DNA from: an uncultured delta proteobacterium
Lineage (GTDB): Bacteria; Desulfobacterota; Syntrophorhabdia; Syntrophorhabdales; Syntrophorhabdaceae
Assembly: GCA_903872255.1 (NCBI GenBank)
Contig: CAIQJW010000218.1
Span: 1 to 33,549 of the forward strand
Reading direction: 5' to 3'
DNA: 33,549 bases
Numbering within the stretch: position 1 is the first letter of the stretch; the number at the start of each line of letters is the position of its first letter. A program made the translations under genes and the position numbers. Below are positions 9,624 to 33,549 of this stretch, in pieces. The notes beneath the pieces were generated by a model. That model was given only the letters and a program-made list of their open reading frames with translations. It was not told where the DNA came from and did not search any database.

Positions 9624-9717
9624 CGGCCCCCTCCATCAAAACCTCTTACCGGGCATCGCTCTTCCTATTATGGCATAACACATGAATAAACCTGCCATCA
9701 AGTGTCCCGGACAATCT

Positions 9718-10164: not shown

Positions 10165-10181
10165 ATCGGGGCTCCCCTTAT

Positions 10182-10841: not shown

Positions 10842-10849
10842 TCGCCCTC

Positions 10850-11608: not shown

Positions 11609-12435
11609 TTTGCCGAAATACCTCGTGCGATCAGATTTAGGGAAAGTGTGAGGACAACAAGTACGAATGAAGCCCCCCAGGCGAATGAATGCCACTCGGG
11701 GTATGGGCTCATCGCATAATAAAATATCCGGTAAGGCAATGAATCAATTGGTTTGAAGATGTTGATGTTCATGAACTGGTTGCCAAAGGCCGTAAAAAGC
11801 AGCGGCGCTGTTTCTCCCGTAATTCGGGCCACGCTGAGCAGTATCCCGGTCAATATGCCGCTCATACCGGACGGAAGCACGACTTTGAGCAGCGTTCTAT
11901 AATACGGCACGCCGAGGGCGAGAGAGGCCTCCTTTAAGTGATACGGAACAAGCTTGAGAGTTTCTTCCGTCGTCTTGACAATAACGGGCAGCATCATGAT
12001 GGCAAGGGCAATGCCCCCCGAAAGGGCTGAGAAGGATTTCAGCGGGCCGACGATCCACAGGTAGGCGATGATCCCTATAACGATCGACGGTGTACCCTGA
12101 AGGACAATGACGCTCAATCGGATAGAATTGCTGAGCCTGCCGGTTTTATTCTCGGCAAGATATATTCCCGCGGCTATTCCGCATGGTATTGATAAAACAC
12201 TTGAAAGAACTATAAGTATCAACGTTCCCACAATGGCATTAAAGACGCCTCCGCCTGTTTCACCGATCGGCCGGGGCAGGCTCGTCAGAAAATCCCAGTT
12301 AATAACTGCGATCCCGTTCTTTGTTATGTAATAAAGGATCAGAAAGAGCGGGAGCAGGGAAATAAAAGCAAAAAGGCAGATAGCGCTTTTGAAAAAGACA
12401 TCCCTTACGAGACGCGCCTTTATGTTATTGACCAT
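11590..12435 (-). CDS. pstA: Phosphate ABC transporter permease PstA
   Basis: 281 aa, 6-TM permease with the EAA-type loop ([20 protein letters not shown]). Lies between pstC and pstB. Confidence 0.9.
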
Positions 12436-13358: not shown

Positions 13359-13405
13359 TCAAACAGGGGCGGATAATATTTTCCCGTTCCTGTTTGCTCC
13401 CATTT

Positions 13406-14571: not shown

Positions 14572-16299
14572 TCAGGAAATAGAGGCAGGCAACGATACGA
14601 TAAATGTCGTGCCCTTGCCGACAGTGCTTTCGACGCGGATCTTTCCATTGTGAAGAAGAACGATATGCTTGACTATCGATAGGCCAAGGCCGGTTCCGCC
14701 CAGTTTTTTGGACCTTGATTTGTCAACCACATAGAACCTTTCAAGAATGCGGGGAATATGTTCGGACGATATACCCGGCCCGGTGTCGGTTATCATGATA
14801 TTTATATCGCCGTCTGCCGTATTCATATGAATTGCGATCCCTCCGGCATCCGTGTATTTAATAGCATTGTCCAGAAGGTTAATAAAAACCTGTTCAAGCT
14901 TGAAAGGATCTCCCATGACGGGCGGGATATTGCCGGGAATATTCATTTTGACCGAAAAACCTTTTGCCCGTATTTGATTCTCAAAGATCTTCAACACCCT
15001 TTCTATAAGCGGCGCCATATCGACAGGTTCAAAATCGAGCGCGAAAGCCTTTTCTTCAAGCTTTGACAATGTCAGAAGATCACTGACGATATTGATCAGG
15101 CGATCTGTATTCCGCCTGATGATAGTGAGATAATTCTTATTTTCATCCGAAAGTGAACTTTCGTCCATGGTCTCTACGTATCCCTTGATAGATGTCAGGG
15201 GTGTGCGTAATTCATGGGACACGTTGAGGACAAAATCGCTCTTTATCTTCTCAAGCCTTTTGATTTCGGAAATATCATGAAAGACGATAACTATCTCTTC
15301 TTTGGACCTCAAAAAAGTGGCACTGCATAAATATGCCATGCCATTCATCATTATTTCTTCAGTGCGGTTTGACCGCTCGCCCCGTACTTTTTTTATAAGA
15401 TCGCTGATCGAGGGTTCCCGCAATGCTTCCCAGTAGGGCTTGCCTGTTTTCAGGTCATGCCCTGTGATATTTTTCATGCTTTCATTTGTCAGGACCACCC
15501 GTTCGTTATTATCAATAACCAGCAACCCTTCCTGCAGTGATGATATTATGCTGTTCAACTCCTCTTTCTGCCGGGTAAGCTCCGCGAACAGGCCCTGCAT
15601 CTCATCGGTCATCGCGTTGAAGCTATCCGCAACCTGTTTGAGCTCATCTCGGCCTTTCAGCAATACCCTGGCGCTGAAGTCGTGCCCGGCTACACGTCTT
15701 ATAGCGTCCGTCACTTCCGCTACGGGACGTGAGATCGTCCGGGCAAAAACAAATGCCGCGATAAGGGCCACAATAAGTACGGCGATGGCTATCTGCAGTA
15801 TTTTTGTATTGAGCCGTCCGGATACAATCTTGATATCTTTCAAGAACATACTTGTCCGGATAACATACCGGATCGTACCATCCTTCTGAACGGGTATCGC
15901 CACGTAGAGCATTTCCTGTCCCAGGGTTTCACTGAAGCGGAGATATCTTCCGGTTCCACCTTCGAGGGCCTGGGCAATCTCCGTCCTGGTGCGATGATTC
16001 TCCATTTTTTTTGGATCTTCCTGAGAATCAGCGATGACTCTGCCTTCAGCATCTACGAGGGTTATTCGGGTATTGATCTGCCCGCCCAGTGTCTTAATTG
16101 TTCTGTCGATCTGTTCATCCCGCGGGATGTCTGTAAGGCGGCTGCCGATCACCGCCGCGATATCTTTTAATTCCTGCCCGGTACGTTCCAGCTGATAATT
16201 ACGGATAAGGTACGACGAGAAAAGAACGATAAGCCCGGACAGGGCGATAATGAGAAAAAAATAACTGCCGAATATCTTAAGAAATATCGAGCGTTTCAT
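14572..16299 (-). CDS. phoR: Phosphate regulon-type sensor histidine kinase (TM-HAMP-PAS-HisKA-HATPase), PhoR-like
   Basis: H-box SHELRTPLTSI, N-box and G-boxes (DTGPGI; GGTGLGLSIVK), and a PAS segment. Overlaps the phoB 3' end and lies next to the pst operon. Confidence 0.8.
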   Translation of the reverse strand: MKRSIFLKIFGSYFFLIIALSGLIVLFSSYLIRNYQLERTGQELKDIAAVIGSRLTDIPRDEQIDRTIKTLGGQINTRITLVDAEGRVIADSQEDPKKMENHRTRTEIAQALEGGTGRYLRFSETLGQEMLYVAIPVQKDGTIRYVIRTSMFLKDIKIVSGRLNTKILQIAIAVLIVALIAAFVFARTISRPVAEVTDAIRRVAGHDFSARVLLKGRDELKQVADSFNAMTDEMQGLFAELTRQKEELNSIISSLQEGLLVIDNNERVVLTNESMKNITGHDLKTGKPYWEALREPSISDLIKKVRGERSNRTEEIMMNGMAYLCSATFLRSKEEIVIVFHDISEIKRLEKIKSDFVLNVSHELRTPLTSIKGYVETMDESSLSDENKNYLTIIRRNTDRLINIVSDLLTLSKLEEKAFALDFEPVDMAPLIERVLKIFENQIRAKGFSVKMNIPGNIPPVMGDPFKLEQVFINLLDNAIKYTDAGGIAIHMNTADGDINIMITDTGPGISSEHIPRILERFYVVDKSRSKKLGGTGLGLSIVKHIVLLHNGKIRVESTVGKGTTFIVSLPASIS

Positions 16300-16981
16300 T
16301 GTCTATCCTGTATCCGGCGCCGCGGACATTTCTTATAATATGCGACGCCTCTCCGAGTTTTTCACGTAAATGCCTGATATGAACGTCTACCGTCCGATCG
16401 ACCACAAACTTCCCATCTCCCCAGAGAAAGTTGAGTATCTGGTCTCTCGATTGAACGCGCCCCTGTCTTGACGCAAGCAAATGCAGTATTTTGAATTCAG
16501 ATGGCGTAAGATCAATTCTCCTTCCTTTCACCTCGACCTCATGTTTGTCAATGTCGATAGAAACAACATCGGCAATGATCATTCTTTGGGCCTCGTCATC
16601 ATGCCGTCCATGGCGTCTCAGGACAGCGCGGACCCGGGCAATAAGTTCGCGGGGCGAAAAAGGCTTAGTCACATAATCATCGGCTCCGAGTTCCAGGCCA
16701 ATTATCTTATCGGTTTCTTCAACCCTTGCGGTCAGCATAATGATGGGGATTAAGGAGGACCGTTCATGCCCTCTCAAATACTTGCATATTTCCAGGCCGT
16801 CTACATCGGGAAGCATCAGGTCGAGTATGACAAGGTCCGGCTGCTCTTTTGCGAGGAAACGATAAAAAGACTCCGCCTCCGTGAATTCCTTGACCCGGAA
16901 ACTGGATCTCTTGAGGTGGATCGATACCAGTTCGAGTATGTCCGGTTCGTCATCAATGATCGCTACCAGTTCGTTCGCCAT
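16277..16981 (-). CDS. phoB: OmpR/PhoB family response regulator, PhoB-like
   Basis: Receiver (IIDDEPDI...LDLMLPDVDG...TAR...KPF) plus a winged-helix output domain (LTPSEFKILHLL...VDVHIRHLREKL...IRNVRGAGYR). Confidence 0.85.
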   Translation of the reverse strand: MANELVAIIDDEPDILELVSIHLKRSSFRVKEFTEAESFYRFLAKEQPDLVILDLMLPDVDGLEICKYLRGHERSSLIPIIMLTARVEETDKIIGLELGADDYVTKPFSPRELIARVRAVLRRHGRHDDEAQRMIIADVVSIDIDKHEVEVKGRRIDLTPSEFKILHLLASRQGRVQSRDQILNFLWGDGKFVVDRTVDVHIRHLREKLGEASHIIRNVRGAGYRIDNETLDIS

Positions 16982-17030
16982 ATTACGAGATTACCCCACC
17001 AGCCATATTTTGCATATAATAAAACAATAT

Positions 17031-17047
17031 TGTTAATTTTGGGTTAA
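17031..17047 (-). promoter_or_regulatory. Pho-box-like direct repeat upstream of phoB
   Basis: On the minus strand: TTAACC (17047-17042), a 5-nt spacer, TTAACA (17036-17031), 50-66 nt upstream of the phoB ATG. The hexamer pair and spacing match those upstream of pstS. Confidence 0.5.
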
Positions 17048-17223
17048 GAAGATGATATGTGACAGACCATATTCTCGAAAGAGCATCATTATAGTTACCC
17101 ATCATCGGGTTATTCTTTCAAATTACCGCGAAACAACCGTTTCTATTTCGATTTCCGGGATGTATGATCTATACTATGCATGCGGCATTCGATGCCGTTA
17201 ATGAGATGCAGGGCATAGACACA

Positions 17224-17506
17224 ATGCGCATATTGATAATTGAAGATGAAAAGAAAACGAACCAGTATCTTGTCAAAGGGCTGACCGAGCATGAATTTGT
17301 TGCCGACGCCTCACATACGGGAGAGGTTCTCACGCGGGCCTTTGCAGGTACGGGACATCAATTTCGATAGCGATACCAACGTGATGGACATTGCAATCCG
17401 GCGGCTAAGAAAAAAAGCGGACGGCCCGTATCCCGTAAAATTGATCCATACTATTCGCGGTGCCGGGTATGTCCTGGAAGACCGCCGGGAATCTAATGAA
17501 TCGTAG
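17224..17506 (+). pseudogene. Decayed CusR/CopR-type (OmpR family) response regulator: large internal deletion plus frameshift
   Basis: [30 protein letters not shown] (first ~30 receiver residues) runs directly into HTGEVLTRA, which belongs to the winged-helix domain. The rest ([25 protein letters not shown]...[14 protein letters not shown]) is in another frame. The receiver phospho-acceptor region is missing altogether. Confidence 0.75.
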
Positions 17507-18950
17507 CAGGATAGCCGAATCCCTTTCAATTACGAAACGCCTGACAATCCTTTACGCTATTTCTGCGTTCATCCTGCTTGCCATATCGGCCATTATCCTG
17601 GATTGGATACTCGTAAGCGACATGGAGTTTGAGGACAACCAGTTCCTCGCTTCAGAAATACAGGGCATCCGGTTATTGCTGCATGAACATCCCCGCGATA
17701 CCGGTACATGGAAGAAGGTTATAGAGAGGGAAACCATCGCTTCGGCGTCCGTCTATCTGAAATATTATGTCCGTATTCTTGATGAGAAAGGCGTTTCTCT
17801 GGTTGAAACCCCGGGCATGAGCGAGGTTCTGGCGAAGACTTCCTTCCCGCTTTACGGGAATTCCCGGGAGCCCGGGGTAAAGGGGGTAAAGCTGAAAGCG
17901 GCAGATGGACGGCCCTTTCTTGTTATGGCCTCACTGGCGGAACCGGGCCCTGCCGGTACCGAAGATAAATATATCCAGATAGCGCTCGATATGTCCCACG
18001 AGGATGCGATCATCCACGGTTATCGCCGTAAAATGTTCATTATACTTATCGCTGGGGTCTTTTTCTCGGCAATGATAGGGTTTCTCGTTGCGCGGGAAGG
18101 TTTGCGGCCTTTAAAGGACATTGCCCGGTCCGTGCAGACCATCGGGGCGGACCGCCTCCATGAAAGGGTAGCGTCAAAACGTTGGCCCCGGGAGGTCATG
18201 ACCCTTGCGAGGTCCTTTGATGCGATGCTTGAAAGACTGGAAAATTCCTTCATTGGATTATCCCGGTTTTCGGCGGATCTCGCCCATGAACTCAGGACCC
18301 CGATCAATAATTTGAGGGGCGAGGCAGAAGTGGCCCTGTATAAGGCACGCGAAGCTTCCGAATACCGGCAGGTCATTGAATCAAGCCTCGAAGAGTACGG
18401 CCGTCTCTCGCGAATGATAGAGAACCTTTTATTTCTCGCACGGGCTGAAAGCAGGGATACCACGATCAGGTATTCCGCCATCAATGCGCGCAAAGATATC
18501 GACGCGCTTCTGGAATTTTACGACGCGATATCCCAGGAAAAACAGATAAACGTGACGTGCAGCGGAGAGGCAGTCCTTAAGGCCGATCCCGTACTCTTTC
18601 GCCAGGCGCTAAGTAATGTCCTGTCCAATGCCTTCCAGTATACCCCGGAAAACGGCGCCATCGAGATCGAAATAGCACAGCGGGACGACGGGTCTGTGCA
18701 TATATCCATCAGCGATACGGGCATCGGGATCGAACCTGAAAACTTATCGAAAATTTTCAACCGGTTTTTCAGGACAGAACGGGCGAAGAACTATTACCCC
18801 GAGGGCACCGGCCTCGGCTTCTCTATCGTTCAATCAATAATGGACCTGCACGGTGGTTCCGTATCTATTGAGAGCGAACCGGACAGGGGAACAACGGTCG
18901 TTTTCGTATTCAATAAGCCTAAGGACATTTCTAGCATTACAGTATTGTAA
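17496..18950 (+). CDS. Heavy-metal sensor histidine kinase (CusS/CopS family)
   Basis: Two TM segments flank a periplasmic domain, followed by HAMP, H-box [24 protein letters not shown] and the HATPase domain (DTGIGI; [12 protein letters not shown]). ATG 17496 overlaps the remnant regulator stop, as in intact cusRS pairs. Confidence 0.8.
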
Positions 18951-20573: not shown

Positions 20574-20580
20574 AAGCCAT

Positions 20581-20662
20581 GCGAGAGTGGCGGAACTGGC
20601 AGACGCACTGGACTTAGGATCCAGCGGGTTAAACCATAGGGGTTCAAGTCCCCTCTCTCGCA
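20581..20662 (+). tRNA. tRNA-Leu, anticodon UAG (type II tRNA with long variable arm)
   Basis: Acceptor stem GCGAGAG/CTCTCGC plus discriminator A, D region GTGGCGGAACTGGCAGACGC, anticodon arm CTGGA-CTTAGGA-TCCAG (TAG at 20615-20617), variable arm, and T arm AGGGG-TTCAAGT-CCCCT. CCA is not encoded. Confidence 0.92.
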
Positions 20663-21051
20663 TTTTCAATAATTTCCAGTTGTTTCATGATTTAACTCCA
20701 ATAAAGTCCGACGTGTTGCGTTATCAATGTGATAAATTTGTGCTAATGGCAAAGTTGACCTGTTAGTTCTTAGTATGTTAGACCGGTGCGCTAATCCCAC
20801 ATCGAAGGCTTTCCATCGACATTTCTTGTTGCTGATGCCAACCTTGCTTCAGTTGCTGGGTAGGGTAGAAACTGCGAGCTTCCTGTAACAAATGACAACC
20901 AATGTTAGTTAAGGATACAAGATTTCAACCGGCAATCTCCAATATGGATATGCAGAAAATATTATTCGCCCGAAATACGTGTTTGCCTTGAAAAAAAGCA
21001 AAATGATGTATAATTATTTATAGACTCCGCAAAAGGAGGCGTAGGGTAGGC

Positions 21052-23231: not shown

Positions 23232-23890
23232 TATCCCTCAAAAATAAATTGCATGACAACAATCCCGGACAGAGGGTTAGCTTTTGTACCGATGTTGCCG
23301 TTCATAGAATCAACATTACTTCCCGTTATTCACGATCAAGGTAAAAAAAGCCCTATGCAACCTTTGCAGGTGCGCCAAATCCGGCAAATTATGCCCATTT
23401 TATACCCGTCATAATGAACATAATCGCCCCCCCTCTATTGATCGATTGCTCAATCCGACCGTGCCAGGTGGAGAGGATTATGGAACGTAATGATCCAGGA
23501 ATACCTCATCTGTGCTGTGCAGAATATCATGACACTGATAGGCTCATCGAAGAGACGGATGGAAGGAGCGGTCGGGCGTCCTTGCATAGCAGTGGAAAAA
23601 GCAACACAATCCCGCATGTTCCCGACGATCTGCATCTTTACGAGAATGACAATGACCGTTACTGCGCAATCAACGACTTAATCGTTCACGCCCGGCCATG
23701 GAACATGAACTGAGCGGTCACGCAACGGCTTTGGGCAACAGGCCGTAAAGATTTGACCCCAGGCCCCTCCACTCAAAAATCTAAACCCGTCCGCGCGCGG
23801 GGCAACAATGCCCGGAAATAAGATTTCGCGCCTTAAGGAGGGCTCGCTTTAAACGCGGGACGCCAGGCAGGGACCGGCTTGGGGATGCCT

Positions 23891-24634
23891 TTATCCGTTC
23901 TGTTTATCGGCTGCTTCCGACGCCTTCTTGAGGGCGTCCAGGAAGGCCCCGTAGTACTTTTCCGCCCTGTCGCCGGGCAACGCCTCGTCTTGGTCACGCA
24001 GGGCGTATATGTCTTTCAGTGCATCTCCATCGAGCGTGAACTCGCGGGCCGAGGCTTCGATGATTTGCTGCGGCCCTTTTGCGTCGCTGCCGTTGACGGC
24101 GAGAAGGAAGCCCAGCGTTTCGACGAAACGCTTTATCTGCTGCGACATCATGACGGTTAGCCGCTGCCCCCCGTTCAGGATGTAGTGCCTGCGAACCTTG
24201 AGAAGCATATTGCTCAGGCGCTGCCTGATGCGGACCATGACGTTCCGGCTGTCTATTGCAAAGCCTGCGAGCGGGTCCTCACCATAGAGCACCCGGTAGC
24301 CGTCCCTGATCGCCATGAATTTCAGCGGGAATATGTCGACGCCGGCAGCGATATCGCCCGGGGTCAGAAAAAGCGGTGCGATACCCGACCGTCTTCCCTT
24401 AAACACGGGGTCGAGAAGCGAGTGCAGCGATGCGATGTCGGCATTCCCGAGGACAACGAGAAGGTTGACGTCGCTCTTCCCGGGACGGTAGTCGTCACGC
24501 GTGGCGCTCCCATACAGGACGAGCGCCTCAAGGGATACCCCGGGGAGCTGCCGAATATCTTCAAGGAATAATGCGACCGCGCTTTTCTCTTCAGTTCCCA
24601 ATCGTGTTCCCGACAAATCCGGTTCTTTATTCAT
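23891..24634 (-). CDS. Pol-beta superfamily nucleotidyltransferase domain protein with a C-terminal helical domain
   Basis: LVLYGSATRDDYRPGKSDVNLLVVL fits hG[GS]x9-13Dh[DE]h, except that the second acidic residue is Asn. About 130 aa of helical C-terminus gives a KNTase/AadA-like overall layout. Starts 11 nt after the rSAM stop. Confidence 0.65.
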   Translation of the reverse strand: MNKEPDLSGTRLGTEEKSAVALFLEDIRQLPGVSLEALVLYGSATRDDYRPGKSDVNLLVVLGNADIASLHSLLDPVFKGRRSGIAPLFLTPGDIAAGVDIFPLKFMAIRDGYRVLYGEDPLAGFAIDSRNVMVRIRQRLSNMLLKVRRHYILNGGQRLTVMMSQQIKRFVETLGFLLAVNGSDAKGPQQIIEASAREFTLDGDALKDIYALRDQDEALPGDRAEKYYGAFLDALKKASEAADKQNG

Positions 24635-24645
24635 CTCTTAACCTC

Positions 24646-25773
24646 TCACGTAAATGTCTCCATAGTGTTCCCGGGACCGGGGTGGTTCGGGGCATACACC
24701 GTGGCCGCTGTTTCAACCCAGCAGCCGGGGTCTTTCCTGAAAGGGTCCCCGGTCAACGCATAGGAAAGGCACCTCAAGCCCCCGCCGCACAGCCGTTCGT
24801 AGAAGCAGCAGCCGCAGCCGTCAGCAGCCCTTTTCCTGTCCCGCAAGGCAATGAAAAGGGGGTTCTCCAGGTAGATCTCCTTAAGCGGCCGGTCAAGGAC
24901 GTTTCCCGCCGGGATGGGCATGCGCCTGCAGGGTACGACGTCTCCATTGGCCATGACGGTGATCAGCGTGCCGCCCGCGGCGCACCGGTAGGGCTCACCC
25001 CCGACCGCGAGGAACTGCAGGGCGCGGTCCATCGCGATCTCGGTGCGGCTAAGGGGGTTCCTCCCGGCCCTGCCCCTAACCTTCAGGACGGCAGAAAAAA
25101 GGTCGCGGACCTCAGCGGGAGATAAGACCTCATCCTTATGCGACCCACTACCGCCGCAGGGGATGAAACGGTCCGTCCAGACCTTGGATACACCCAGCTT
25201 CATTCCCAGTTTTGCAACATCGCTGAAGCACCGGTAGTTCCGGCGCGATGCCGTGAAAGATATCAGCGTCCTGATCCCGTTCTCGCCAAGATACCGGATC
25301 GCGCGGGAGATCCTCCTGTGGTCGCCCGGACCCCGTATGCTGTCGTGCATCGCCTCGTCACCGTCTATGCTCACCTGGATGAACCCGGGCCCAAGGGATT
25401 TGAGGCGCCTGGCGCTTTTCGCATCGATAAAGCTGCCGTTTGTCAGGATGGCAAAGCTGAAGGCCCCCCTGCGTGCATGGAATTCTTCGAGAAGGTCCCA
25501 GATGTCCTCCCGTATAAAAGGCTCCCCGCCCGTGAGATTAATGTGCCCGGGCTGCCCGTTGCCGATTGCCGCCAGGTCACAGAACCGGTCCGCTACCCGG
25601 ATAAGCTCATCCCGGGTAAGTTCATCCGTCCTGCCGAGTTCCTGGTAACAGTGAATGCACCTGTTATTGCACCGTTCCGTTATGTGCCACTGGAGGAGCA
25701 TTCTTTTGCGCAAGGATGGGCCTTTAGCCCGCTCTACCGTCAACCGGTCGTGATAGGCCTTTACCCGCCACAT
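24646..25773 (-). CDS. Radical SAM enzyme with a C-terminal SPASM-type auxiliary cluster domain
   Basis: CNNRCIHCY (CxxxCxxC), LTGGEPF, ILTNG, and a C-terminal YRCAAGG...GDVVPC...CGCCFYERLCGGGLRC. Start uncertain: ATG 25773, GTG 25782, ATG 25791 and ATG 25833 are all possible, and all overlap the 3' end of the upstream gene. ATG 25701 is the only non-overlapping option and lacks an RBS. Confidence 0.85.
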   Translation of the reverse strand: MWRVKAYHDRLTVERAKGPSLRKRMLLQWHITERCNNRCIHCYQELGRTDELTRDELIRVADRFCDLAAIGNGQPGHINLTGGEPFIREDIWDLLEEFHARRGAFSFAILTNGSFIDAKSARRLKSLGPGFIQVSIDGDEAMHDSIRGPGDHRRISRAIRYLGENGIRTLISFTASRRNYRCFSDVAKLGMKLGVSKVWTDRFIPCGGSGSHKDEVLSPAEVRDLFSAVLKVRGRAGRNPLSRTEIAMDRALQFLAVGGEPYRCAAGGTLITVMANGDVVPCRRMPIPAGNVLDRPLKEIYLENPLFIALRDRKRAADGCGCCFYERLCGGGLRCLSYALTGDPFRKDPGCWVETAATVYAPNHPGPGNTMETFT

Positions 25774-26669
25774 CCGCCGCACCCCCCGCATCCTCCGCCG
25801 TCTCCACCGCCTCCGCCGTCCGATGAACTGCATCCCCCGCAGGAACTCCCCGGGGACGACTTCCTGAAGGCGGACTGGAATTCCTCATATAAGGGAGAGC
25901 CCGCCAGGGCCGCCGCACCGAATATCGCGACCGCATAGGCCGGGTCTATCCCCTCCGGCGCGTTCCTCGTGCGCAGCCAGTCGAAATGTTTTTCAAGCTC
26001 TCCGAGATATTGCCTGCCCAGCCCGCTGGCCTTGCTCCATGGCTTGAGGATCAAGGGGACGAGGACGAAAGAGCAAACCATCAGCACGAAGAGAAAAAAG
26101 ACCGGTTTTCCCAGCGAGACGCCGAGCATGAATTTCGAGAAACCGGCCACGACGAGAATGGCCATGAGGACCCAGAAGATCGCCCAGCAACGCCTCTCCT
26201 CCGATGCATTCTTGATGAGCCGGTGTTGCGCCAACTCCTGGTAATTGAAGATGGCCAGGCTTTCCACGTCCCTGCGTATCGCCTGCGACGTGAAAAGGTC
26301 CTTTGTCTTCGTTTTCCTTGCCACATGATCGTAGACCGAACGGGTGACCGGTTTTAACGTCCGAAGTTTGACCGTCCGTTCCGCGTCGCTTAAGTCTGTC
26401 CTGTTGATGGAAGCCTTATCCTTCGTGCCTTCGATCTCTGCAAGCCCTTTGTTCAGGAGGTCGAACACTGCCGTCTTGACGGCCTCCTTCCAATCCCCTT
26501 TCAGGAACGATATCGTCAGGGGGTCAAACCTCGTCAGGTTAGGCAGGGGCAAACCCCTCGTGCTGTCGGCACCCATCATCAACCTGCCGGCAAGCACGCA
26601 GGCCACCCCCAGGCAGACGTAAAGGAATAGAAAGGCTGGTCCCGGTATGGATTGTAAGAATTCAATCAT
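25761..26669 (-). CDS. TIGR04222-like three-TM membrane protein with a Cys/Gly low-complexity C-terminal tail
   Basis: N-terminal TM, then LTRFDPLTISFLKGDWKEAVKTAVFDLLNKGLAEI, which resembles the TIGR04222 N-terminal domain as I remember it. Two central TM helices. The last 28 aa are SSCGGCSSSDGGGGGDGGGCGGCGGCGG. Starts 3 nt after the channel gene stop. Confidence 0.6.
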   Translation of the reverse strand: MIEFLQSIPGPAFLFLYVCLGVACVLAGRLMMGADSTRGLPLPNLTRFDPLTISFLKGDWKEAVKTAVFDLLNKGLAEIEGTKDKASINRTDLSDAERTVKLRTLKPVTRSVYDHVARKTKTKDLFTSQAIRRDVESLAIFNYQELAQHRLIKNASEERRCWAIFWVLMAILVVAGFSKFMLGVSLGKPVFFLFVLMVCSFVLVPLILKPWSKASGLGRQYLGELEKHFDWLRTRNAPEGIDPAYAVAIFGAAALAGSPLYEEFQSAFRKSSPGSSCGGCSSSDGGGGGDGGGCGGCGGCGG

Positions 26670-26672
26670 TGC

Positions 26673-28448
26673 CTACCCCGATCTTCCTCCCGGCGAGATG
26701 TAGTAAACGGTATCCCCCGGGTGCATCATTGTGTGGTCCCGTCCGAACCTGATATTGCCTTGTGTGTCCCTGACCATAAGCACCCTGTCCCCTAATTCCT
26801 TCAAAGCGGGCCCAAAGGCCTCCCCGGCGCCCACCCTGGAACTCGACACAAAGATCTTTCCCGCGGCACTGTCAAAGGCGTTTATGACATCGCTCATCAA
26901 TGCCGCCGATGCGAAAGCAGCCGATGCGATGTAGGAGGAACTGACGGCGTCGTCTATGCTGAAATTCTTCCGTATCATGCGGGCGAAATCTTCGTCGAAG
27001 ATCCTCAGGACCGTCCTGATACCGCCGTTCGTCGCCGCCGCGTTCAGCCCGGCCTCCAGGTTCATGAGGTCATTGTCGGTAGAGCACACTATCGCTTTTG
27101 CATGCCCGGCGCCGGCGTGAGCAAGGGAATCCTCCAGAGTTGCGTCTGAAACGATGAACGGGACCCCCATATCCCTCAGTCTCTGGATAAACCTGTTCTG
27201 CGGGTTCTTTTCGACGACCACCACATCCTCGCCGAGTTCGACGAGATTTTCGAGTATCCTTGCCCCGACATCCCCGAGGCCGCAGACAATCACGTGGTCC
27301 CGGATGTGCATTTTCCGCCTGCCCATGAGTATCTCGAGCCTTTTCTTGATCATGCTGTCCGTGATGAAAGCGAACAGTATGGCCATAAGCATGGCCCCGG
27401 AAAGCATGAGGACTATTCCGACGACCTTGGAAATTGTCGATGACTCGCGCAGGCTGATATCGCCGAAGCCGACCGTCGTGAGGACGGTCACGACAAAGTA
27501 GACGGCATTTATGAAGCTCAACTTCTCCGAGGCGGCGAAGAAGAAGATGCTGAAAAGGAGTATCCCGAGAAGGGTGACGAGGGTAAAGAAGAGCACCTTG
27601 TCCGACAGGAGAAGGCCCGGTCTGAACCTCCGCCCCTTCCTGGCCCCGCTTCTTCTTTCGCCGGGCCTCAAAGGGGCTATTATGCCGCTCAGCTTCTTTG
27701 CCCCGGCGAAGGATGAGAAGCACAAGACCCGCGCATCGTGCCCTATTACCTCATCTGTGCCCGGGCAAGCGGTCCCGTCGATCGCGACTATCCTGATATT
27801 GCGTTCGGCTTCAGTTTCACCGGCACTTTTTTCCGTTCCCCCCGTTAAAACATCGCCCTTCACCTCGTAAAACGTATATGTCGCGTTATCCACCCTGAAC
27901 GACAGGATAGAATCCCGGACCAATGCGGAAACAGCAAAGCTTGGCGTCGCGACCTGCGATACACTGATAGCGCGCACACCGGGTATCCTCTTTTCAAGCT
28001 CCCCGGCAAACTTCATGTTGAAGACCCGTACGACGATCCTCATGCCGGGATTGAGCTCGTTGACCCTCATTGCGGCGTGTATATTGAACTGGTCGTCCTC
28101 GGAGGGAAATATTATCGAACCCGCGGAACGAAGGTCCAGTTCATTCAACGTGTCCAGGCTGTTCGTGTCGGCTGTAACGACTAGAACCCCCGACGACCTC
28201 GTTTGCTCAAGAAGCCGCGAATGTTCCCGGGCCACAATGGTGACAGGCACCCCCGTTTCGACGAGGAATTCCATTATCCTGAACCCGGCATTCGAAAGGC
28301 CGTATATGATGACGCCCTTCTCCCGCCCCTCCCTAGCACGGGATACCGTTCTGTCGTCAACCGCATTTTGTTCCAGTATAAAGCCCCCTGTCTCGCACGT
28401 GTCGGTCATTGATTCAAAATCGATGTACCGGTGAGCCAATTGTACCAC
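26673..28448 (-). CDS. 2TM potassium channel flanked by N- and C-terminal RCK (TrkA-N/TrkA-C) modules
   Basis: Selectivity filter TVGFGD between two TM helices. Rossmann motifs VIIYGLSNAGFRI (N-terminal) and VIVCGLGDVGARI (C-terminal). Start uncertain: GTG 28448 or ATG 28409, neither with a clear RBS. Confidence 0.8.
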   Translation of the reverse strand: MVQLAHRYIDFESMTDTCETGGFILEQNAVDDRTVSRAREGREKGVIIYGLSNAGFRIMEFLVETGVPVTIVAREHSRLLEQTRSSGVLVVTADTNSLDTLNELDLRSAGSIIFPSEDDQFNIHAAMRVNELNPGMRIVVRVFNMKFAGELEKRIPGVRAISVSQVATPSFAVSALVRDSILSFRVDNATYTFYEVKGDVLTGGTEKSAGETEAERNIRIVAIDGTACPGTDEVIGHDARVLCFSSFAGAKKLSGIIAPLRPGERRSGARKGRRFRPGLLLSDKVLFFTLVTLLGILLFSIFFFAASEKLSFINAVYFVVTVLTTVGFGDISLRESSTISKVVGIVLMLSGAMLMAILFAFITDSMIKKRLEILMGRRKMHIRDHVIVCGLGDVGARILENLVELGEDVVVVEKNPQNRFIQRLRDMGVPFIVSDATLEDSLAHAGAGHAKAIVCSTDNDLMNLEAGLNAAATNGGIRTVLRIFDEDFARMIRKNFSIDDAVSSSYIASAAFASAALMSDVINAFDSAAGKIFVSSSRVGAGEAFGPALKELGDRVLMVRDTQGNIRFGRDHTMMHPGDTVYYISPGGRSG

Positions 28449-28627
28449 GCCGCTTTTATTTCTTGAACGAATAATTTCAGAGACCCCCGGCGCCTGAGGC
28501 TACGCCGGGTAAGAACCCTTTGATTGAGAAACTAACTTTAGAGATGGTACAATAGACGGGGGCAGGTCACCCTGCGAGAGGATGGACATCATTGTTGTCT
28601 CAACCTCTCGCTTGTGTCGCTGGGCAA

Positions 28628-29323
28628 CTACTTTGCGGGTGTTGCAGGAACTGCTTCTACAGGCTTTGCATCTTTTGCATCTTTTTTGTGATGTTTCTTT
28701 CCGTGGCGCTGTGGTTTTCCTACAAATTTTGCGACCATTTTGCCATCAGTCTCTTCGTAGCCAACCATGACCTTGTCGCCTGTCTTTAAATCTTCCAACT
28801 TGAGATCTTTGCCAAACTTGGCATTAGCAACGTCAAAGGTCATCTCGCCTTTTTTGCCCTTCACCGCTACCACTATGGTCTTTGCCGCTGCGTCAGCGCT
28901 GACTACCTTGCCTTTTGCCGTTAGCCCGGCCATATCGTGTTTATTGTGTTTTCCTACAAATTTTGCAACCATTTTGCCGTTAACCTCTTTGTAGCCGACC
29001 ACGACCTTGTCGCCTGTCTTTAAATCTTCCATCTTTAAGCCTTTGGCAAACTTGGCATTCGCTATGTCAAAGGTCATCTCGCCTTTTTTGCCCTTCACGA
29101 CCATGGTCTTTGCCGCTGCATCCACGCTGACTACTTCACCTCTTGCCCTCGTCCCATCTTTCTTTTGGGCCGGGGCTTTTACATCTGCCGCAGGGGCCGT
29201 GGCTGCCTCTTTCGTAACCGTCTTCTTGTCGGGCGCTGTTTTTGCTGCCTCCTGGGCAAATACTGTTGCCGCAAAAACAATACTAACGACAAATACCAAC
29301 ATTAATAATAATCCTTTCTTCAT
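28628..29323 (-). CDS. Secreted protein built from two tandem ~78-aa modules with His/Lys-rich ends (hypothetical)
   Basis: Signal peptide MKKGLLLMLVFVVSIVFAATVFAQE. The module G(E/K)VVS(V/A)DAAAKT..VKGKKGEMTFD(I/V)ANAKF...LKTGDKV.VGY.E..GKMVAKFVGK occurs twice. GGAGGT RBS. Confidence 0.7.
   Translation of the reverse strand: MKKGLLLMLVFVVSIVFAATVFAQEAAKTAPDKKTVTKEAATAPAADVKAPAQKKDGTRARGEVVSVDAAAKTMVVKGKKGEMTFDIANAKFAKGLKMEDLKTGDKVVVGYKEVNGKMVAKFVGKHNKHDMAGLTAKGKVVSADAAAKTIVVAVKGKKGEMTFDVANAKFGKDLKLEDLKTGDKVMVGYEETDGKMVAKFVGKPQRHGKKHHKKDAKDAKPVEAVPATPAK
28715..29134 (-). repeat. Intragenic tandem duplication (period about 234 bp) in the secreted-protein gene
   Basis: About 28715-28907 and 28949-29134 align almost base for base (TTTTCCTACAAATTTTGC.ACCATTTTGCC...GACCTTGTCGCCTGTCTTTAAATCTTCCA...GTCAAAGGTCATCTCGCCTTTTTTGCCCTTCAC...). 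Confidence 0.85.
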
Positions 29324-29415: not shown

Positions 29416-32400
29416 TCATGAGGGATTGCCTACCAATATAAATGCCCCCCAATAGAACGGATTTGGCCTCTTTTTCATCAGTTCCAACTTCGCCTGCCTC
29501 AGCGCCTCTGCCTTTGATTTTCCATCAGCCATGAGAGTGTAAAAGTTTGTCATAAGTTGCATTGTCTCCGCACTGGGCACACTCCAGAGACTTAGCACGA
29601 CCGCCTTAGCTCCGGAAAGAATAAATGCCCTCTTCAAACCAAAAACACCCTCCCCGCTTCGCACATCACCGACCCCGGTTTCGCAGGCTGACAGTACAAC
29701 AAGATCAGTTCCCATGAGTCGAAGTCCCATAACCTTTTCAGCACTCATTATGCCTTCGTCTTTTCCTTCTTTAAGGGACAGGTTGATTCCTGCAAGAGCG
29801 AGTCCTGACCGTAGCATGGGGCTGTCTTTTAGCAGCGTTTGATTGGACTCCGTTGCATTCTTGCCATGTTTACTTTCATCTTTTTCGATGAAAAAGCCAT
29901 GAGTTGCCAGGTGGACTATGCTCGGAGATTCGGCGGAAAACAGGACCGCGTCCACGGCTTTGTCATTCTGATAGTTTTTCACGGAAATCTGCATTTTCTG
30001 AGTTAATATCTTCTCGATGGTATTTGCCTCATCTTTTGTATCGGGAAGCCTTAAAAATGATGCCGGTTCGTTCACTTTTGCAGCAGATGTCGCTGTCACC
30101 GGTTTTGCCTGCCTGCTCAACCCGAAATCATAATCCGGATCAGCAAGAATCAGGGCTATCGCGCTGCGCTCCGGGCGAACCTCCTTACCCTCAAGCCTCA
30201 CAATGTCCCTGCCGGCAGAGATGTAGCTGATCTGGTACTTCTCTAAGGGGTATTCCCCTTTTGCATCAAGGAGCACTTCAAAAGGTATCAGATTGAGGAT
30301 GCCATCAGGGCTGATATACAGATGCTGTTTGTTGGTGACGTAACTATCGATAGGCCCCATCAGAAGTTTGTAAAGTTCCGCGCCCTCCTTATCGAGAGTT
30401 TGTTTATTGGGTACATACCCATCTCTTGAGGAATTCATCGCTTTTAGATAGGCACGAACATGTTGATCTATCTTCTCACACGAACCAAGACTGATCATTG
30501 AAAGGGGTATTTTTTCTCCCGGTCTGAGGATAAAAACGAGGTATTGTTCTCCGGCCCAGGCCTTTTTCTTATAATCAAAAATATCGATCCTGGCAAAATC
30601 CAGGTAAACCGAGTTCTTTGGGAGTACCTCGGCGATCCTCGCCGTGTCTGCCTTTCCGGCCTTCTTCTCAATGTCAAAATCCTTGCTCATGGCCGAAAGA
30701 GCTGTTTCAAGGTTCTCCTTCAACTTTTCCCGTGCCGCCAACGTATTTTTAACATCCTCAAATGTTGCATCCGTCCACCTTGTAGTCTGGAGCTTCGCTA
30801 TTTCCCTTCTCGTCTTGATCAATTTTTCAAAGAGCTCCTTAATCTTGACATTCCCGGAGGCAACGACAGCCTCCAGATGCCTGCCCTGGGCCTCCATGAC
30901 AGCCCCCTTCCACTGGAGCCATGCATTCATGGTCCCGGTTACAGCCGCCTCATTTGAAGCAAGATACGACGCGGAATGACTCAGGAACTCATACATGGAG
31001 AGCTCGGTTGTCTTCATGTAGTTCAATTTTTCCCTTTCTGACAAGAGGAGAAATACATTGTCCCTTTTTATACCTTCGATCCGCACACTTTGTTCAAAGA
31101 AACGGTGGCTTTCTATGTGGTTTCCCTGCAAGGCGTAGAGAAGGGCAAGTTCCTTTGCTGACAACCCCACTTTAGGATGCTTATCCCCGAGTGCATTGAG
31201 ACGGATTGTGTATGCCTTGAGCAGGAAATGCCCCGATGTATCATATCTGCCAATAATACGGTACAAGACCCCCAGCTTTTGCATGCTGTCCGCTGTAAAA
31301 ACATGGTCTTTACCATACACTTTTTCCCGTATTTCGAGAGCTGTCTTATAGCGTTGTTCTGCTTCCTGGAACTTCCCTGAAGTTACGTAAAGACCTGCCA
31401 GAGCGTCAAGGCTTTCCGCAATATCAGGATGGTATTTCCCGAAAGCCTTTTCGAGGATTTCGAGCGCCCTTTTATAGCAAGACTCCGCCTCTTTCACTGC
31501 CCCTCGCGCCAAATACAAAGTTCCAAGTAAGTTGAGACTTCCCGCAACCGAAAGATGGTCCCTGCCCAAAGCCTTTTCCTGAATTTCAATCGCTTTCTTG
31601 AATTCCTGTTCTGCTTCAACTGACCTGCCGCTGTTCCGATACAATTCAGCCAGATCGATCCGGCTTTCAGCGACAATGGCGTGCCCTTTGCCAAGAACTG
31701 TCTCACGTATTCCCAGAGCCTGCTTGCATAGGGGTTCTGCTTCAGCATATAGCCCTTTTGCAATATAGATTTCTGCCAGCACTTCCATGCTTCTTGCCGT
31801 GTCGACGTGCCCATGTCCTAATTTGTCCTGATTGGTCTTGAGCGCTGCAGTTGCAAGCCTTTCCGCGTCTTCATACCTGCCCATGTTCACATACAGGCCA
31901 GCAAGAGAGGTCATAACCCGGGTAGTGCTCGGATGGTCGCGGCCCCTTGTCTTCTCCCTGATTTCCAGCGCTTTCTGATATAGCGTTTCCGCCTCACGGT
32001 ATCTCCCCATTGTCTCATATAACTCTGCAACCGAACTGATACTCCCTGCATAACGGGGGTGATCGGTCCCCAACACCTTCTCCCTCATCTTCATGGATCT
32101 GGACAAAAGCTGCTCTGCTTCGCTGAATTTCCCCAGGGTCATATATACTCGGGCAAGACTATTCAAGCTTGCTGCCGTATCCTGGTGTTCGGGAATCAAC
32201 ACCTTTTGTCGTATTTCCAGGCCTTTTTTCAGGTACGTTTCAGCTTCGCCATATTTACCCATAGCAAGGCAGAGCATCCCGATAGATGTGAGGCTTTGCG
32301 CCACGAGAGGATGCTGGTCTCCAAATACGGCCTGCCGGATCTTCAGGGAATCTTTAAACAAAGATTCAGCTTCAGCGTTCCTTCCCGTAGACCGGTATAT

Positions 32401-33549
32401 ATTGCCCAGTAGTTGCATGCTCGTAGCCACGTCAGGATGGTTTTTCCCAAGTCTCGCTTCCCGTATGCCAAGGGCCTGCTTACAGAGCTGTTCCGCCTTT
32501 ACATATTCTCCGAGAGAGTATTCTATGTCGGCGAGATTCTGGATATCTTCAGCGATCCGGGGATGTCCCCGATCATAGTTTTTCTCTGAAATCTCCAGCG
32601 CTGCCGTGGCCATCCGCTGAGCCTCGGGGTACTTCGCCATAGTTTTGTACAGAGACGCAAGAGATCCAAGCGATTGTCCCACCTGAGAGTGATCTTTTTC
32701 CAGTTGCTTGCGTCTAATCTCAAGAACTCTTGTGTATTGTTTCTCCGCCTCGGCATAATTTCCCATAAGTTCGTTAAATTCCGCCAAAGCATATAAGCTT
32801 CGGGCGTAACGCAGACTATCCGTGCCTCCCGTTGCCTCTCTGGCTTTCAATGAACGTTTGAGCAGTGGTTCCGCCTCTGCGTATCTTCCTGAAACAGCAT
32901 ATAAGCGGGCAAGCATGCCTATTGTTGTTGTAATTTCTGGATAATCGGCGGCAAGCTGTTTCTCCCTGATATCAAGAGATCTCTTGTATGCGGCCTCAGC
33001 CTCCAAATACTTACCCTGAGAGAAAAGTGCCGATCCCAGAGAATTCAGGCTTTGTGCAACATCCAGATGCTCTTTACCTAAGGATTTCTCCCGTATTCCA
33101 AGAGCCCTTGTGTATTGTTTCTCTGCCTCGTTGGCTTTGCCTTTCGCTGAAGCTACACGTCCCAAAACCATCAGTGTTTCGGCGGTCTCCGGGTGATCGA
33201 CACCTAATTTCTTTTCCCTGATTGTAAGAACTTTCTTGGCCAATATTTCGGCTTTGTCATATTGACCTTTCGCTATTGCTATCTCGGCCCTTGTCTGCAT
33301 ACTCTTAGCTACCGCAGGATGCTCCGGTTCACCTCTTTTTTTCATGATCGCGTCCACGCGGTCGCAGAAAAGCTCGGACTCGTCGTATTTACCCATGCTC
33401 TTGTAGATATCGGCTACAGAATGAAGGGACATCACAAGACGAGGATGGTCTTTCCCCAGACGCTTCTCATTCATCTCAAGTGCCTTAAGATACAGAGGTT
33501 CAGCCTCACGGTATTTGCCCGTTGCCTCAAATATCTTTGCCATGGCAAA
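29416..33549 (-). CDS. Giant TPR-CHAT protein (kinesin-light-chain-type TPR array plus a C-terminal caspase-like CHAT protease domain); 5' end outside the window
   Basis: At least 19 consecutive 42-aa units (HP..A.SL..LA.LY...G.Y.EAE.L..+AL.IREK.LG.D). The C-terminal CHAT domain has IVHLATHGFF (His codon 29899-29901) and LVVLSACETG (Cys codon 29683-29685). The frame stays open through 33549 and the flanking residues continue the repeat register. Confidence 0.85.
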   Translation of the reverse strand, partial: FAMAKIFEATGKYREAEPLYLKALEMNEKRLGKDHPRLVMSLHSVADIYKSMGKYDESELFCDRVDAIMKKRGEPEHPAVAKSMQTRAEIAIAKGQYDKAEILAKKVLTIREKKLGVDHPETAETLMVLGRVASAKGKANEAEKQYTRALGIREKSLGKEHLDVAQSLNSLGSALFSQGKYLEAEAAYKRSLDIREKQLAADYPEITTTIGMLARLYAVSGRYAEAEPLLKRSLKAREATGGTDSLRYARSLYALAEFNELMGNYAEAEKQYTRVLEIRRKQLEKDHSQVGQSLGSLASLYKTMAKYPEAQRMATAALEISEKNYDRGHPRIAEDIQNLADIEYSLGEYVKAEQLCKQALGIREARLGKNHPDVATSMQLLGNIYRSTGRNAEAESLFKDSLKIRQAVFGDQHPLVAQSLTSIGMLCLAMGKYGEAETYLKKGLEIRQKVLIPEHQDTAASLNSLARVYMTLGKFSEAEQLLSRSMKMREKVLGTDHPRYAGSISSVAELYETMGRYREAETLYQKALEIREKTRGRDHPSTTRVMTSLAGLYVNMGRYEDAERLATAALKTNQDKLGHGHVDTARSMEVLAEIYIAKGLYAEAEPLCKQALGIRETVLGKGHAIVAESRIDLAELYRNSGRSVEAEQEFKKAIEIQEKALGRDHLSVAGSLNLLGTLYLARGAVKEAESCYKRALEILEKAFGKYHPDIAESLDALAGLYVTSGKFQEAEQRYKTALEIREKVYGKDHVFTADSMQKLGVLYRIIGRYDTSGHFLLKAYTIRLNALGDKHPKVGLSAKELALLYALQGNHIESHRFFEQSVRIEGIKRDNVFLLLSEREKLNYMKTTELSMYEFLSHSASYLASNEAAVTGTMNAWLQWKGAVMEAQGRHLEAVVASGNVKIKELFEKLIKTRREIAKLQTTRWTDATFEDVKNTLAAREKLKENLETALSAMSKDFDIEKKAGKADTARIAEVLPKNSVYLDFARIDIFDYKKKAWAGEQYLVFILRPGEKIPLSMISLGSCEKIDQHVRAYLKAMNSSRDGYVPNKQTLDKEGAELYKLLMGPIDSYVTNKQHLYISPDGILNLIPFEVLLDAKGEYPLEKYQISYISAGRDIVRLEGKEVRPERSAIALILADPDYDFGLSRQAKPVTATSAAKVNEPASFLRLPDTKDEANTIEKILTQKMQISVKNYQNDKAVDAVLFSAESPSIVHLATHGFFIEKDESKHGKNATESNQTLLKDSPMLRSGLALAGINLSLKEGKDEGIMSAEKVMGLRLMGTDLVVLSACETGVGDVRSGEGVFGLKRAFILSGAKAVVLSLWSVPSAETMQLMTNFYTLMADGKSKAEALRQAKLELMKKRPNPFYWGAFILVGNPS

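Follow-up and report, generated by a model that had tools for sequence, protein, structure and literature searches.

Organization of the locus

The stretch of DNA analysed here, called the window over its full 33,549 nt, is contig CAIQJW010000218.1 (assembly GCA_903872255.1) of an uncultured delta proteobacterium of the family Syntrophorhabdaceae, and it contains a block of four closely spaced genes that encode a dual-RCK K+ channel, a membrane protein of the TIGR04222 family with a C-terminal tail of Gly, Ser, Asp and Cys, a radical S-adenosylmethionine (SAM) enzyme carrying a SPASM domain (rSAM hereafter), and a nucleotidyltransferase (NTase)-like protein. The conserved unit is the tailed protein together with the rSAM, and this pair occurs without the other genes in most genomes. 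The balance of the evidence inclines us to regard the core as a two-gene module, in which the tail of the TIGR04222 protein is the substrate of the downstream rSAM. Positions are numbered on the window, and the four genes are read on its minus strand:

28448..26673, minus strand: dual-RCK K+ channel gene, 591 aa (open reading frame from a candidate GTG start at 28448)
26669..25761, minus strand: TIGR04222/DUF2207_C membrane protein gene, 302 aa
25773..24646, minus strand: radical SAM/SPASM gene (candidate starts at 25833, 25773 and 25701)
24634..23891, minus strand: NTase-like gene, 247 aa

The domain identities that a preliminary description had read from the letters of the sequence were recovered by profile searches, in which TrkA_N, Ion_trans_2, TIGR04222, PF04055 and SPASM all matched. 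The TAG stop of the channel gene is separated by 3 nt from the ATG of the tailed gene at 26669, and 11 nt, GAGG among them, lie between the rSAM stop (TGA at 24646) and the ATG of the NTase-like gene at 24634; both spacings agree with that description. The 13-nt overlap that it reported between the end of the tailed gene and the rSAM gene holds if the rSAM starts at ATG 25773, whereas a start at ATG 25701, as in the public gene call (P0001), leaves a gap of 57 nt. The part of the rSAM open reading frame (ORF) upstream of 25773 is rich in Arg and Trp because the GGC-rich tail region is read there in another frame. For the channel, the true start may lie downstream of GTG 28448, as the homologue at locus L005 starts at about residue 22. 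In scans for promoters and terminators, no signal near the block exceeded that of shuffled sequence.

Genomic association of the tailed protein and the rSAM

Relatives of the rSAM were sought by a combined pattern and tblastn scan of one genome per GTDB species, and at least 551 species genomes encode one. Neighbourhood counts refer to the best 80 of these at least 551 loci, with enzymes 44-78% identical to the query, from which all ORFs were extracted and searched by BLASTP and with hidden Markov models built from alignments made in this analysis. These 80 loci span more than 12 phyla, archaea included, and are found in Syntrophorhabdaceae, Nitrospinota, Anaerolineae/Chloroflexota, Planctomycetota, Desulfobacterales, Syntrophobacteraceae, Clostridia, sulfur bacteria of the Beggiatoa/Thiomargarita/Thioploca type, Verrucomicrobiota, Acidobacteriota, Poribacteria, Thermoplasmata and Woesearchaeota. 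The rSAM is present in 80/80 loci, and it is adjoined by a match to the TIGR04222 profile in 53 of them. When neighbours were instead scored by the tail itself (at least three Cys and at least ten Gly in the last 40 residues, followed by six-frame rescue), a Gly/Cys-tailed ORF was found beside the rSAM in about 66 of the 80 loci. In the reverse direction, all four distant tail-bearing TIGR04222 homologues that were checked, L087 among them, are followed immediately downstream by an rSAM of this family, and as a negative control none of 79 unrelated metagenome K+ channel loci carried any of the three other block genes. The co-occurrence of the rSAM with TIGR04222-type genes, on which the preliminary description depended, is thus found across phyla.

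Between the stop codon of the tailed gene and the QWH motif conserved in the rSAM there are 26-80 nt in most loci, so that the rSAM start abuts or overlaps the tailed gene. Such close or overlapping junctions are a trait of the family, and the rSAM gene is probably translationally coupled to the tailed gene. No tetrapyrrole, cofactor, protease or exporter genes are conserved in the neighbourhoods of the rSAM loci, and no sulfatase gene was found there.

Some loci show irregularities of their own. The rSAM of L087, absent from the public gene call, has a frameshift in its SPASM region, and the tailed gene or the rSAM is likewise split or frameshifted in L015, L024, L038, L047, L079 and L084. 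The breaks lie at or near the GGC-rich stretch that encodes the tail, or in the SPASM region, and these loci come from metagenome-assembled genomes (MAGs); assembly error in low-complexity DNA or real slippage could be the cause. The tail-coding stretch of the window has mixed Gly codons and a weak 9- and 18-nt periodicity. At L086 (1713-2870 and 5906-6973), a locus of a complete genome, the TIGR04222-rSAM pair is preceded, at a distance of about 3 kb, by another rSAM/SPASM gene, which stands beside small unannotated ORFs and may represent a duplicated or related maturase system.

The tailed membrane protein

The membrane protein matches TIGR04222 over nearly the whole model (positions 3-229 of 229; 99.2 bits, cutoff 43, E 2.7e-28) and also DUF2207_C. 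Its AlphaFold2 (AF2) model, with a mean predicted local distance difference test (pLDDT) of 86.9, contains helices at residues 10-33, 155-185 and 191-208, a folded domain at about 50-148 and short helices at 244-255 and 259-271, after which the chain runs out into the tail, SSCGGCSSSDGGGGGDGGGCGGCGGCGG. Two features of this end of the protein matter here:

25764..25853, minus strand: disordered Gly/Ser/Asp/Cys tail, residues 273-302 (AF2 pLDDT <50), the proposed substrate
25773-25799, minus strand: GGGCGGCGG, residues 291-299, invariant across the 38-homologue alignment

Five Cys are found in the last 28 residues, exactly as the preliminary description had counted them. In alignment A3, which comprises 38 homologues that are 27-74% identical, the invariant positions are four scattered residues and one block, G291-G299. 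Moreover, CGGCG occurs within the last ~10 residues of all 120 nearest database homologues (120/120), with a median of five Cys in the last 45 residues.

At three loci the membrane protein itself is replaced. In L029, L067 and L042 its place directly upstream of the rSAM is taken by short ORFs, 35-73 aa in length, with GGGGCGCGCGCG-type stretches at their ends: a tandem pair (56 and 58 aa) with a common ...YSKEELEEAIKPHG... motif in L029 (Poribacteria, 5305-5760), one of 73 aa in L067 (5703-5924) and one of ~35 aa in L042 (around 5894). These loci look like the classical version, in the manner of peptides that are made on ribosomes and modified after translation (RiPPs), of the same system. 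The Gly/Cys stretch is the sole feature common to these neighbours, membrane proteins and short ORFs alike, and this is the strongest argument for the tail as the substrate. The short ORFs of L029 and L067 are flanked by conserved genes of ~320 aa and ~270-300 aa.

Whether the enzyme can reach the tail depends on topology. A scan with the Hessa scale gave three firm transmembrane (TM) segments in all 38 homologues and a fourth, marginal segment at about 240-260, which scored +0.1 to +4 in 20 of the 38 and above +4.5 in the window protein. The 34-154 domain and the 209-243 segment, both on the side of the tail given three TM helices, are rich in Lys and Arg, and by the positive-inside rule these features would place the tail in the cytoplasm. 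We therefore lean toward a cytoplasmic tail, and it is plausible, as modelled, that an Fe-S enzyme could reach it. A search of the AF2 model against the PDB with Foldseek returned nothing significant (best E 0.5), so that a reading of the soluble domain as a RiPP recognition element (RRE) or a winged-helix recognition domain is unsupported.

The radical SAM/SPASM enzyme

The rSAM matches PF04055 (72.6 bits, cutoff 29.5) and the SPASM model PF13186 (32.2 bits, cutoff 21.5), and its cluster-binding regions map as follows:

25648-25671, minus strand: CxxxCxxC motif of the rSAM (alignment A1)
24721-24984, minus strand: seven-Cys SPASM region of the rSAM (alignment A1)

Across the 27 rSAM sequences of alignment A1, LLQWHxTxRCNxxCxHCYQ, which includes CxxxCxxC as C35/C39/C42, and GGEPF are invariant, as are seven Cys in the SPASM region (C264, C282, C320, C323, C329, C335 and C351). 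Seven rather than eight SPASM Cys would, in our view, be compatible with an auxiliary cluster that, like that of CteB, leaves a site open to the thiolate of a substrate. Since only ~20-25 residues, which are not conserved, precede the SAM motif, the enzyme has no N-terminal RRE domain.

On sequence grounds, the rSAM is a member of an uncurated radical SAM/SPASM family. None of the NCBIfam models (June 2026 release) reaches its cutoff, and scores amount to at most ~40% of the cutoff: for the window enzyme these are TIGR04053 with 141 bits (cutoff 395), GeoRSP (TIGR04303) with 139 (400), AhbD with 138 (500), the ACGX-system model (TIGR04340) with 131 (400), NirJ with 119 (515) and SbtM (TIGR04082) with 104 (350). 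The heme and heme d1 models AhbC, AhbD and NirJ together span 112-138 bits against cutoffs of 500-650. Among PDB sequences the best match is PqqE (4e-16), followed by SkfB and CteB, and the match to the anaerobic sulfatase-maturating enzyme (anSME) is confined to 80 residues of the SPASM region (PDB 4k37, E 2e-5). Assignments to heme (AhbD/NirJ), pyrroloquinoline quinone, mycofactocin or anSME functions were rejected, as the curated cutoffs are not reached; the preliminary description had named heme and sulfatase maturation as families that would point elsewhere, and the rSAM falls outside these and other known unrelated families, with scores far below the cutoffs.

In ten other family members the best model is ACGX (7/10) or SbtM (3/10), at 140-163 bits. 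We treat this ranking as a hint and no placement, because the margins between models are small and their order differs for the window rSAM; sequence in this case does not identify the chemistry. A search with PADLOC gave only weak matches, generic viperin for the rSAM and the PDC-S09 MNT-like component for the N-terminus of the NTase-like protein, and a reading of the block as a defence system was rejected, no defence partners being conserved.

Relation to known systems

Cys-rich tails of TIGR04222 proteins were proposed in 2025 as substrates of MNIOs, oxidative enzymes that depend on multinuclear non-heme iron; among the Cys proteins that lack a signal peptide and are encoded upstream of MNIO genes, ~40% belong to TIGR04222, mostly in Actinomycetota, and about a third of the TIGR04222-bearing complete genomes have no MNIO gene (PMC12452194). 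In the accessible parts of its text and supplements, that paper mentions no radical SAM partner of TIGR04222. The MNIO-associated systems resemble the block in the membrane-protein family itself, in the unstructured Gly/Ser/Cys C-terminal region, and in that the proposed Cys modification falls on the tail of a full-size protein and not on a short peptide. They differ in that the block has an rSAM/SPASM neighbour and neither an MNIO nor a PME partner; no MNIO (DUF692/MbnB_TglH_ChrH) was detected in the four block genes or in 20 other large window ORFs scanned. The hosts differ as well, being mainly Actinomycetota in the MNIO case, whereas those of the rSAM module are mostly anaerobes or microaerophiles from many phyla. 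A tblastn search of the tailed protein against plasmids gave no match and yielded no MNIO-linked TIGR04222 example. The modification of such a tail, as suggested in the preliminary description, had already been put forward in the MNIO proposal.

Indeed, the two enzyme classes are already known to meet in one product. SbtM is a radical SAM/SPASM enzyme that converts Cys/Sec in a conserved GGUG to a thio(seleno)oxazole through two beta-hydrogen abstractions (PMC9204691), and bufferin-type MNIO enzymes make the same copper-binding 5-thiooxazole (PMC11626156, PMC12668002, PMC12538549). A Gly-Cys heterocycle is therefore made by two unrelated classes, one of which is tied to TIGR04222, and the window ties the other class there.

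The likeness of the present family to SbtM/SbtMa (TIGR04082) lies in the radical SAM/SPASM architecture, in substrates built on Gly-Gly-Cys/Sec-Gly, and in the place of that model among the two best. However, the family scores 104-158 bits against the SbtM cutoff of 350 (window 104, relatives 139-158), and it lacks the ~200-residue N-terminal extension of SbtM, with matches that start at about position 190-200 and reach 515 of 516. The substrate of SbtM is a selenopeptide, whereas here it would be a membrane-protein tail with several Cys, and SbtM occurs in Geobacter and Desulfobacteria, whereas the rSAM family is far more widely distributed. The rSAM of the ACGX-repeat system (TIGR04340) is the best curated model for most of the members scored, but at 131-163 bits against a cutoff of 400; its function is uncharacterised, and its substrates are short peptides, predicted, as its name implies, to be Cys-Gly repeat peptides.

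A precedent for paired oxidation chemistries is given by anSME and the formylglycine-generating enzyme, where a radical SAM/SPASM enzyme oxidises a protein Cys without O2 and an unrelated O2-dependent enzyme does the equivalent job. Unlike anSME, with which similarity is weak and confined to the SPASM region, the present system has no sulfatase motif or gene. From canonical RiPP clusters it is set apart by a putative substrate that is a 302-aa membrane protein and by having no RRE and no conserved protease or exporter, although short peptides occur in the sister loci L029, L067 and L042.

To our knowledge, nearly all known substrates of radical SAM/SPASM maturases are short secreted peptides, with a few soluble enzymes besides, whereas the conserved partner here is a membrane-protein tail. 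Hundreds of species, spread over more than 12 phyla, have this pairing, with hosts that include archaea, giant sulfur bacteria and lineages of the ANME (anaerobic methanotrophic) type. Literature searches, which left subscription-only papers and NCBIfam/InterPro notes uncovered, found no link of rSAM/SPASM enzymes to TIGR04222, DUF2207 or Gly-Cys tails. The pairing of tailed protein and rSAM is undescribed in the accessible literature, and the rSAM family is without a curated model.

Proposed function

Taken together, it is most likely, as judged from sequence and gene order, that the module performs an oxygen-independent modification of the tail cysteines. The view that the tail is the substrate of the rSAM, which the preliminary description had put forward, is probably correct: linkage and the invariant motif speak for it, and the modification itself we infer. 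In the proposed mechanism the tail, on the cytoplasmic face and within reach of the cytoplasmic rSAM, would be handled like a RiPP core peptide, with the "precursor" kept membrane-anchored. A substrate Cys thiolate would bind the open site of an auxiliary [4Fe-4S] cluster, its beta-hydrogen would be abstracted by the 5'-deoxyadenosyl radical, and Gly-Cys units would then be oxidised. The likeliest product would be 5-thiooxazole heterocycles, as formed by SbtM and the bufferin MNIO, with thioether cross-links as the second candidate; in both cases a sulfur-rich ligand for soft metals, for instance Cu(I), would be tethered to the membrane. The rSAM would then be an O2-independent counterpart to the MNIO enzymes found with TIGR04222 genes in other genomes, mainly actinobacterial ones, and the NTase-fold protein would be an optional accessory that tracks Gly-tailed membrane proteins. 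Both the binding of soft metals and the role as an anaerobic counterpart of MNIO are what we infer from these likenesses.

The nature of the product is the more doubtful part. A thiooxazole-type product is possible, but we hold to it only tentatively, and the fully specified proposal, in which an unnamed rSAM/SPASM family carries out O2-independent, thiooxazole-type heterocyclisation of the invariant GGCGGCGG to give a membrane-tethered metallophore arm convergent with the MNIO systems, is a speculative one that we consider rather unlikely as a whole. The same module might act on the same substrate by forming thioether links from Cys sulfur to Gly alpha-carbons or to Ser/Asp carbons, this being the commonest reaction of SPASM peptide maturases; in a variant, Cys would be turned into formylglycine or dehydro residues, and no thiooxazole would be formed. 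A CteB-like seven-Cys SPASM architecture is indeed present, the StsB and PapB models (sactipeptide/ranthipeptide maturases) match the window rSAM at 79-98 bits, and Ser and Asp occur in the upstream part of the tail. The invariant core, however, consists only of Gly and Cys, which leaves the Gly alpha-carbon as the sole acceptor, the closest models for most members are those of the ACGX-system rSAM and SbtM and not of sactisynthases, and TIGR04222 tails are elsewhere linked to heterocycle-making MNIOs of the bufferin type (PMC12452194). Thioether or related chemistry on this tail is in our estimation unlikely.

Several points weigh against the assignment of the tail as a substrate of the rSAM and against a heterocycle as its product. 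The adjacency of two genes does not by itself prove a relation of enzyme and substrate, and a Gly/Cys-tailed neighbour is missing from about 14 of the 80 rSAM loci: in about four of these the upstream sequence is too short to judge, and in about ten the flank is sufficient. Two of the tail-less loci, L014 and L033, have downstream genes in common, among them a PqqD-like ORF in L014, and may belong to a different subfamily. As to topology, some homologues could have a fourth TM helix in the conserved, marginally hydrophobic segment at ~244-258 (DPAxAVAIFG), and periplasmic tails were predicted for the TIGR04222 examples in PMC12452194; the cytoplasmic tail of the preliminary description is plausible, and moderately favoured by the three firm helices and the Lys/Arg-rich loops. 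The lead of ACGX and SbtM over TIGR04053, NirJ and AhbD is only 10-20 bits, and for the window's own rSAM, TIGR04053, GeoRSP and AhbD outscore SbtM. Finally, CGGC is itself a CxxC metal-binding motif, so that an unmodified tail might work.

This last point leads to a reading in which the tail is an unmodified CxxC-type arm for metal or an Fe-S cluster, the rSAM acts on another substrate (a cofactor, lipid or small molecule), and the membrane protein serves it as an anchor, scaffold or electron/metal donor. It draws on the CxxC character of CGGC, on the ~10 adequately flanked loci with no tailed neighbour, and on AhbD, NirJ and TIGR04053, which score nearly as high as the peptide-maturase models. 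We nevertheless consider it improbable, for the Gly/Cys motif is extremely conserved where it adjoins the enzyme gene, short Gly/Cys-rich peptides substitute for the membrane protein in L029, L067 and L042, and the neighbourhoods conserve no tetrapyrrole or cofactor genes.

The preferred reading, in which the rSAM modifies the tail, offers a candidate answer to the question raised in 2025 of what modifies TIGR04222 tails in MNIO-less genomes, and it points to an aerobic/anaerobic pair of enzymes acting on one substrate class, with GGGCGGCGG as the minimal substrate motif. Should the fully specified proposal above be true, rSAM systems would explain why about one third of the TIGR04222-bearing genomes have no MNIO, and chemistry of the RiPP type, so far a matter of diffusible peptides, would reach proteins resident in the membranes of bacteria and archaea. 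A metal-binding product would be a buffer of a new kind in anaerobes, anchored in the membrane and serving for copper or soft metals.

The nucleotidyltransferase-like protein

The preliminary description had taken the four genes as one unit, but a conserved four-part system was not found, the channel being present in 2/80 and the NTase-like gene in 23/80 loci. The place of the NTase-like gene varies: it may come after the rSAM, stand upstream of the tailed gene, or separate the two. Its family has 72 database matches of ~246 aa. The active-site region of the window protein is the following:

24464-24514, minus strand: variant active-site motif GS...SDxN of the NTase-like protein (alignment A2)

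The protein had been called a Pol-beta nucleotidyltransferase, and this description stands for the fold and less so for the activity. The AF2 model (pLDDT 93.9) has the two-domain fold of the aminoglycoside and kanamycin nucleotidyltransferases (ANT/KNTase), and Foldseek retrieved AadA, ANT(9), ANT(4') and the Hailong enzyme HalB (E 1.7e-5 to 1e-3, probability 1.0, TM-score 0.49-0.58). The match to NTP_transf_2 (PF01909), however, is below the cutoff (18.3 bits, cutoff 21), and phmmer found no match among PDB sequences at E 10. In the 40 sequences of alignment A2 the GS motif is kept and is followed by S54-D55-x-N57, in which an invariant N57 replaces the second carboxylate; because S-D-x-N takes the place of the canonical D-x-D/E, the predicted activity is uncertain.

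None of three distant relatives of this protein (24-33% identity) lies beside a TIGR04222 gene or an rSAM/SPASM gene of this family. Instead, in all three loci the NTase-like gene precedes a TPM_phosphatase (YgcG-like) gene and then LemA:

L168, 4001-6116: NTase-TPM-LemA locus of a distant NTase relative
L169, 4001-6132: NTase-TPM-LemA locus of a distant NTase relative
L170, 2392-4596: NTase-TPM-LemA locus of a distant NTase relative

The TPM proteins of these loci have a signal peptide and the TPM domain; a TM helix and an RRRR stretch come before the Gly-rich tail, which ends in GGGGASGSW. The loci look like a second conserved context that links the NTase-fold family to Gly-tailed membrane proteins, and on account of these contexts the family appears to track such proteins generally and not the rSAM. 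The DUF2207_C match of the tailed protein, together with TPM-LemA pairs with Gly-rich tails adjoining NTase-like genes, makes the LemA/DUF2207/TPM (YgcG-type) systems a further likeness to the block, but the Gly-rich tails of the TPM/YgcG type have no Cys and no rSAM partner. In L168, a gene that matches Radical_SAM only, with no SPASM domain, stands just after LemA.

Horizontal transfer and the K+ channel

The preliminary description had noted by eye that the block is richer in GC than its flanks, and measurement agrees: GC is 56-61% in the block and ~49% in the rest of the window, and GC at third codon positions (GC3) is 70-75% in the block genes against 50-64% in ten flanking genes. A blastn comparison of the whole window with L001, a Syntrophorhabdaceae MAG (CAXXUO010000002.1) located via the closest rSAM homologue, gave a single alignment of 4595 bp at 82.3% nucleotide identity, from window 23890..28477 to L001 5342..9900, the ends of which coincide with the borders of the operon while the flanks do not align. 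The genome around the block in L001 has 52-61% GC, against the 49% background in the window. The segment is thus delimited as:

23890..28477, minus strand: four-gene block, horizontally acquired (blastn alignment to L001 and GC3)

Because there is a single contiguous alignment with unrelated flanks, the block moved as a unit; the comparison supports the joint arrival of the four genes in the window genome by horizontal transfer, and in this lineage they co-travel. The hint of horizontal acquisition in the preliminary description is strengthened by the L001 alignment, the unrelated flanks and the GC contrast.

The channel contains two stretches of TrkA_N (1.8e-40) and one Ion_trans_2 match (3.3e-13) in the order RCK, 2-TM pore, RCK, and its selectivity filter, TTVGFGD, is conserved in an alignment with the L005 and L075 homologues; a Pfam search found no TrkA_C match in it. 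These are the two loci in which a channel lies beside the core. L005 is a close relative of the window, and L075 (Planctomycetales, 5989-10453), with the order rSAM, NTase-like, TIGR04222, channel and with overlapping junctions, is the sole independent recurrence of the association, its channel being 30% identical to that of the window. When metagenomes were scanned with the K+ channel by itself there was no match, and a scan with the three-sequence channel alignment retrieved 79 generic K+ channel loci, none with an N-terminal RCK or the module.

One could conceive of the four genes as one device, in which the channel has the tail protein, modified or sensing redox state or metal, as its regulator or partner and is tuned by the NTase-like protein. 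The genes are tightly packed and moved as one block, and the four gene types recur in L075, in a different order and with a divergent channel. Yet the channel is rare among the module's loci, one of its two occurrences being in a close relative of the window, the 79 generic channel loci lack the module, and the core pair stands alone in most genomes; we judge such a device very improbable. On the preferred reading the channel is either a passenger peculiar to this lineage or a partner with a loose link to the core, and most simply a passenger.

Neighbouring genes

Directly upstream of the block, outside the transferred segment, lies a gene for a large repeat protein, and between the two is that of a smaller, secreted-looking one. 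The genes and features around the block are:

29416-33543, minus strand: 1375-aa protein with ~17 TPR_12 repeats and then a C-terminal CHAT (caspase-like) domain
28628-29323, minus strand: 231-aa secreted-looking protein of two near-identical halves with a His/Lys-rich C-terminus
20580-20663: tRNA-Leu
10182-14467 (minus strand) and 14572-18950: phosphate-uptake cluster beside genes for a two-component sensor and regulator
6163-8544: MscS-family channel

The halves of the 231-aa protein follow the pattern ...VVSVDAAAKT.VV..KGKKGEMTFD.ANAKF.K.LK.EDLKTGDKV.VGY...GKMVAKFVGK, and the protein has weak matches to DUF1344 and DUF5666. The phosphate-uptake cluster comprises a PBP_like_2 binding protein, two permeases, an ABC ATPase and PhoU, and together with the MscS channel and the tRNA-Leu it makes up ordinary surroundings that have the host genome's lower GC.

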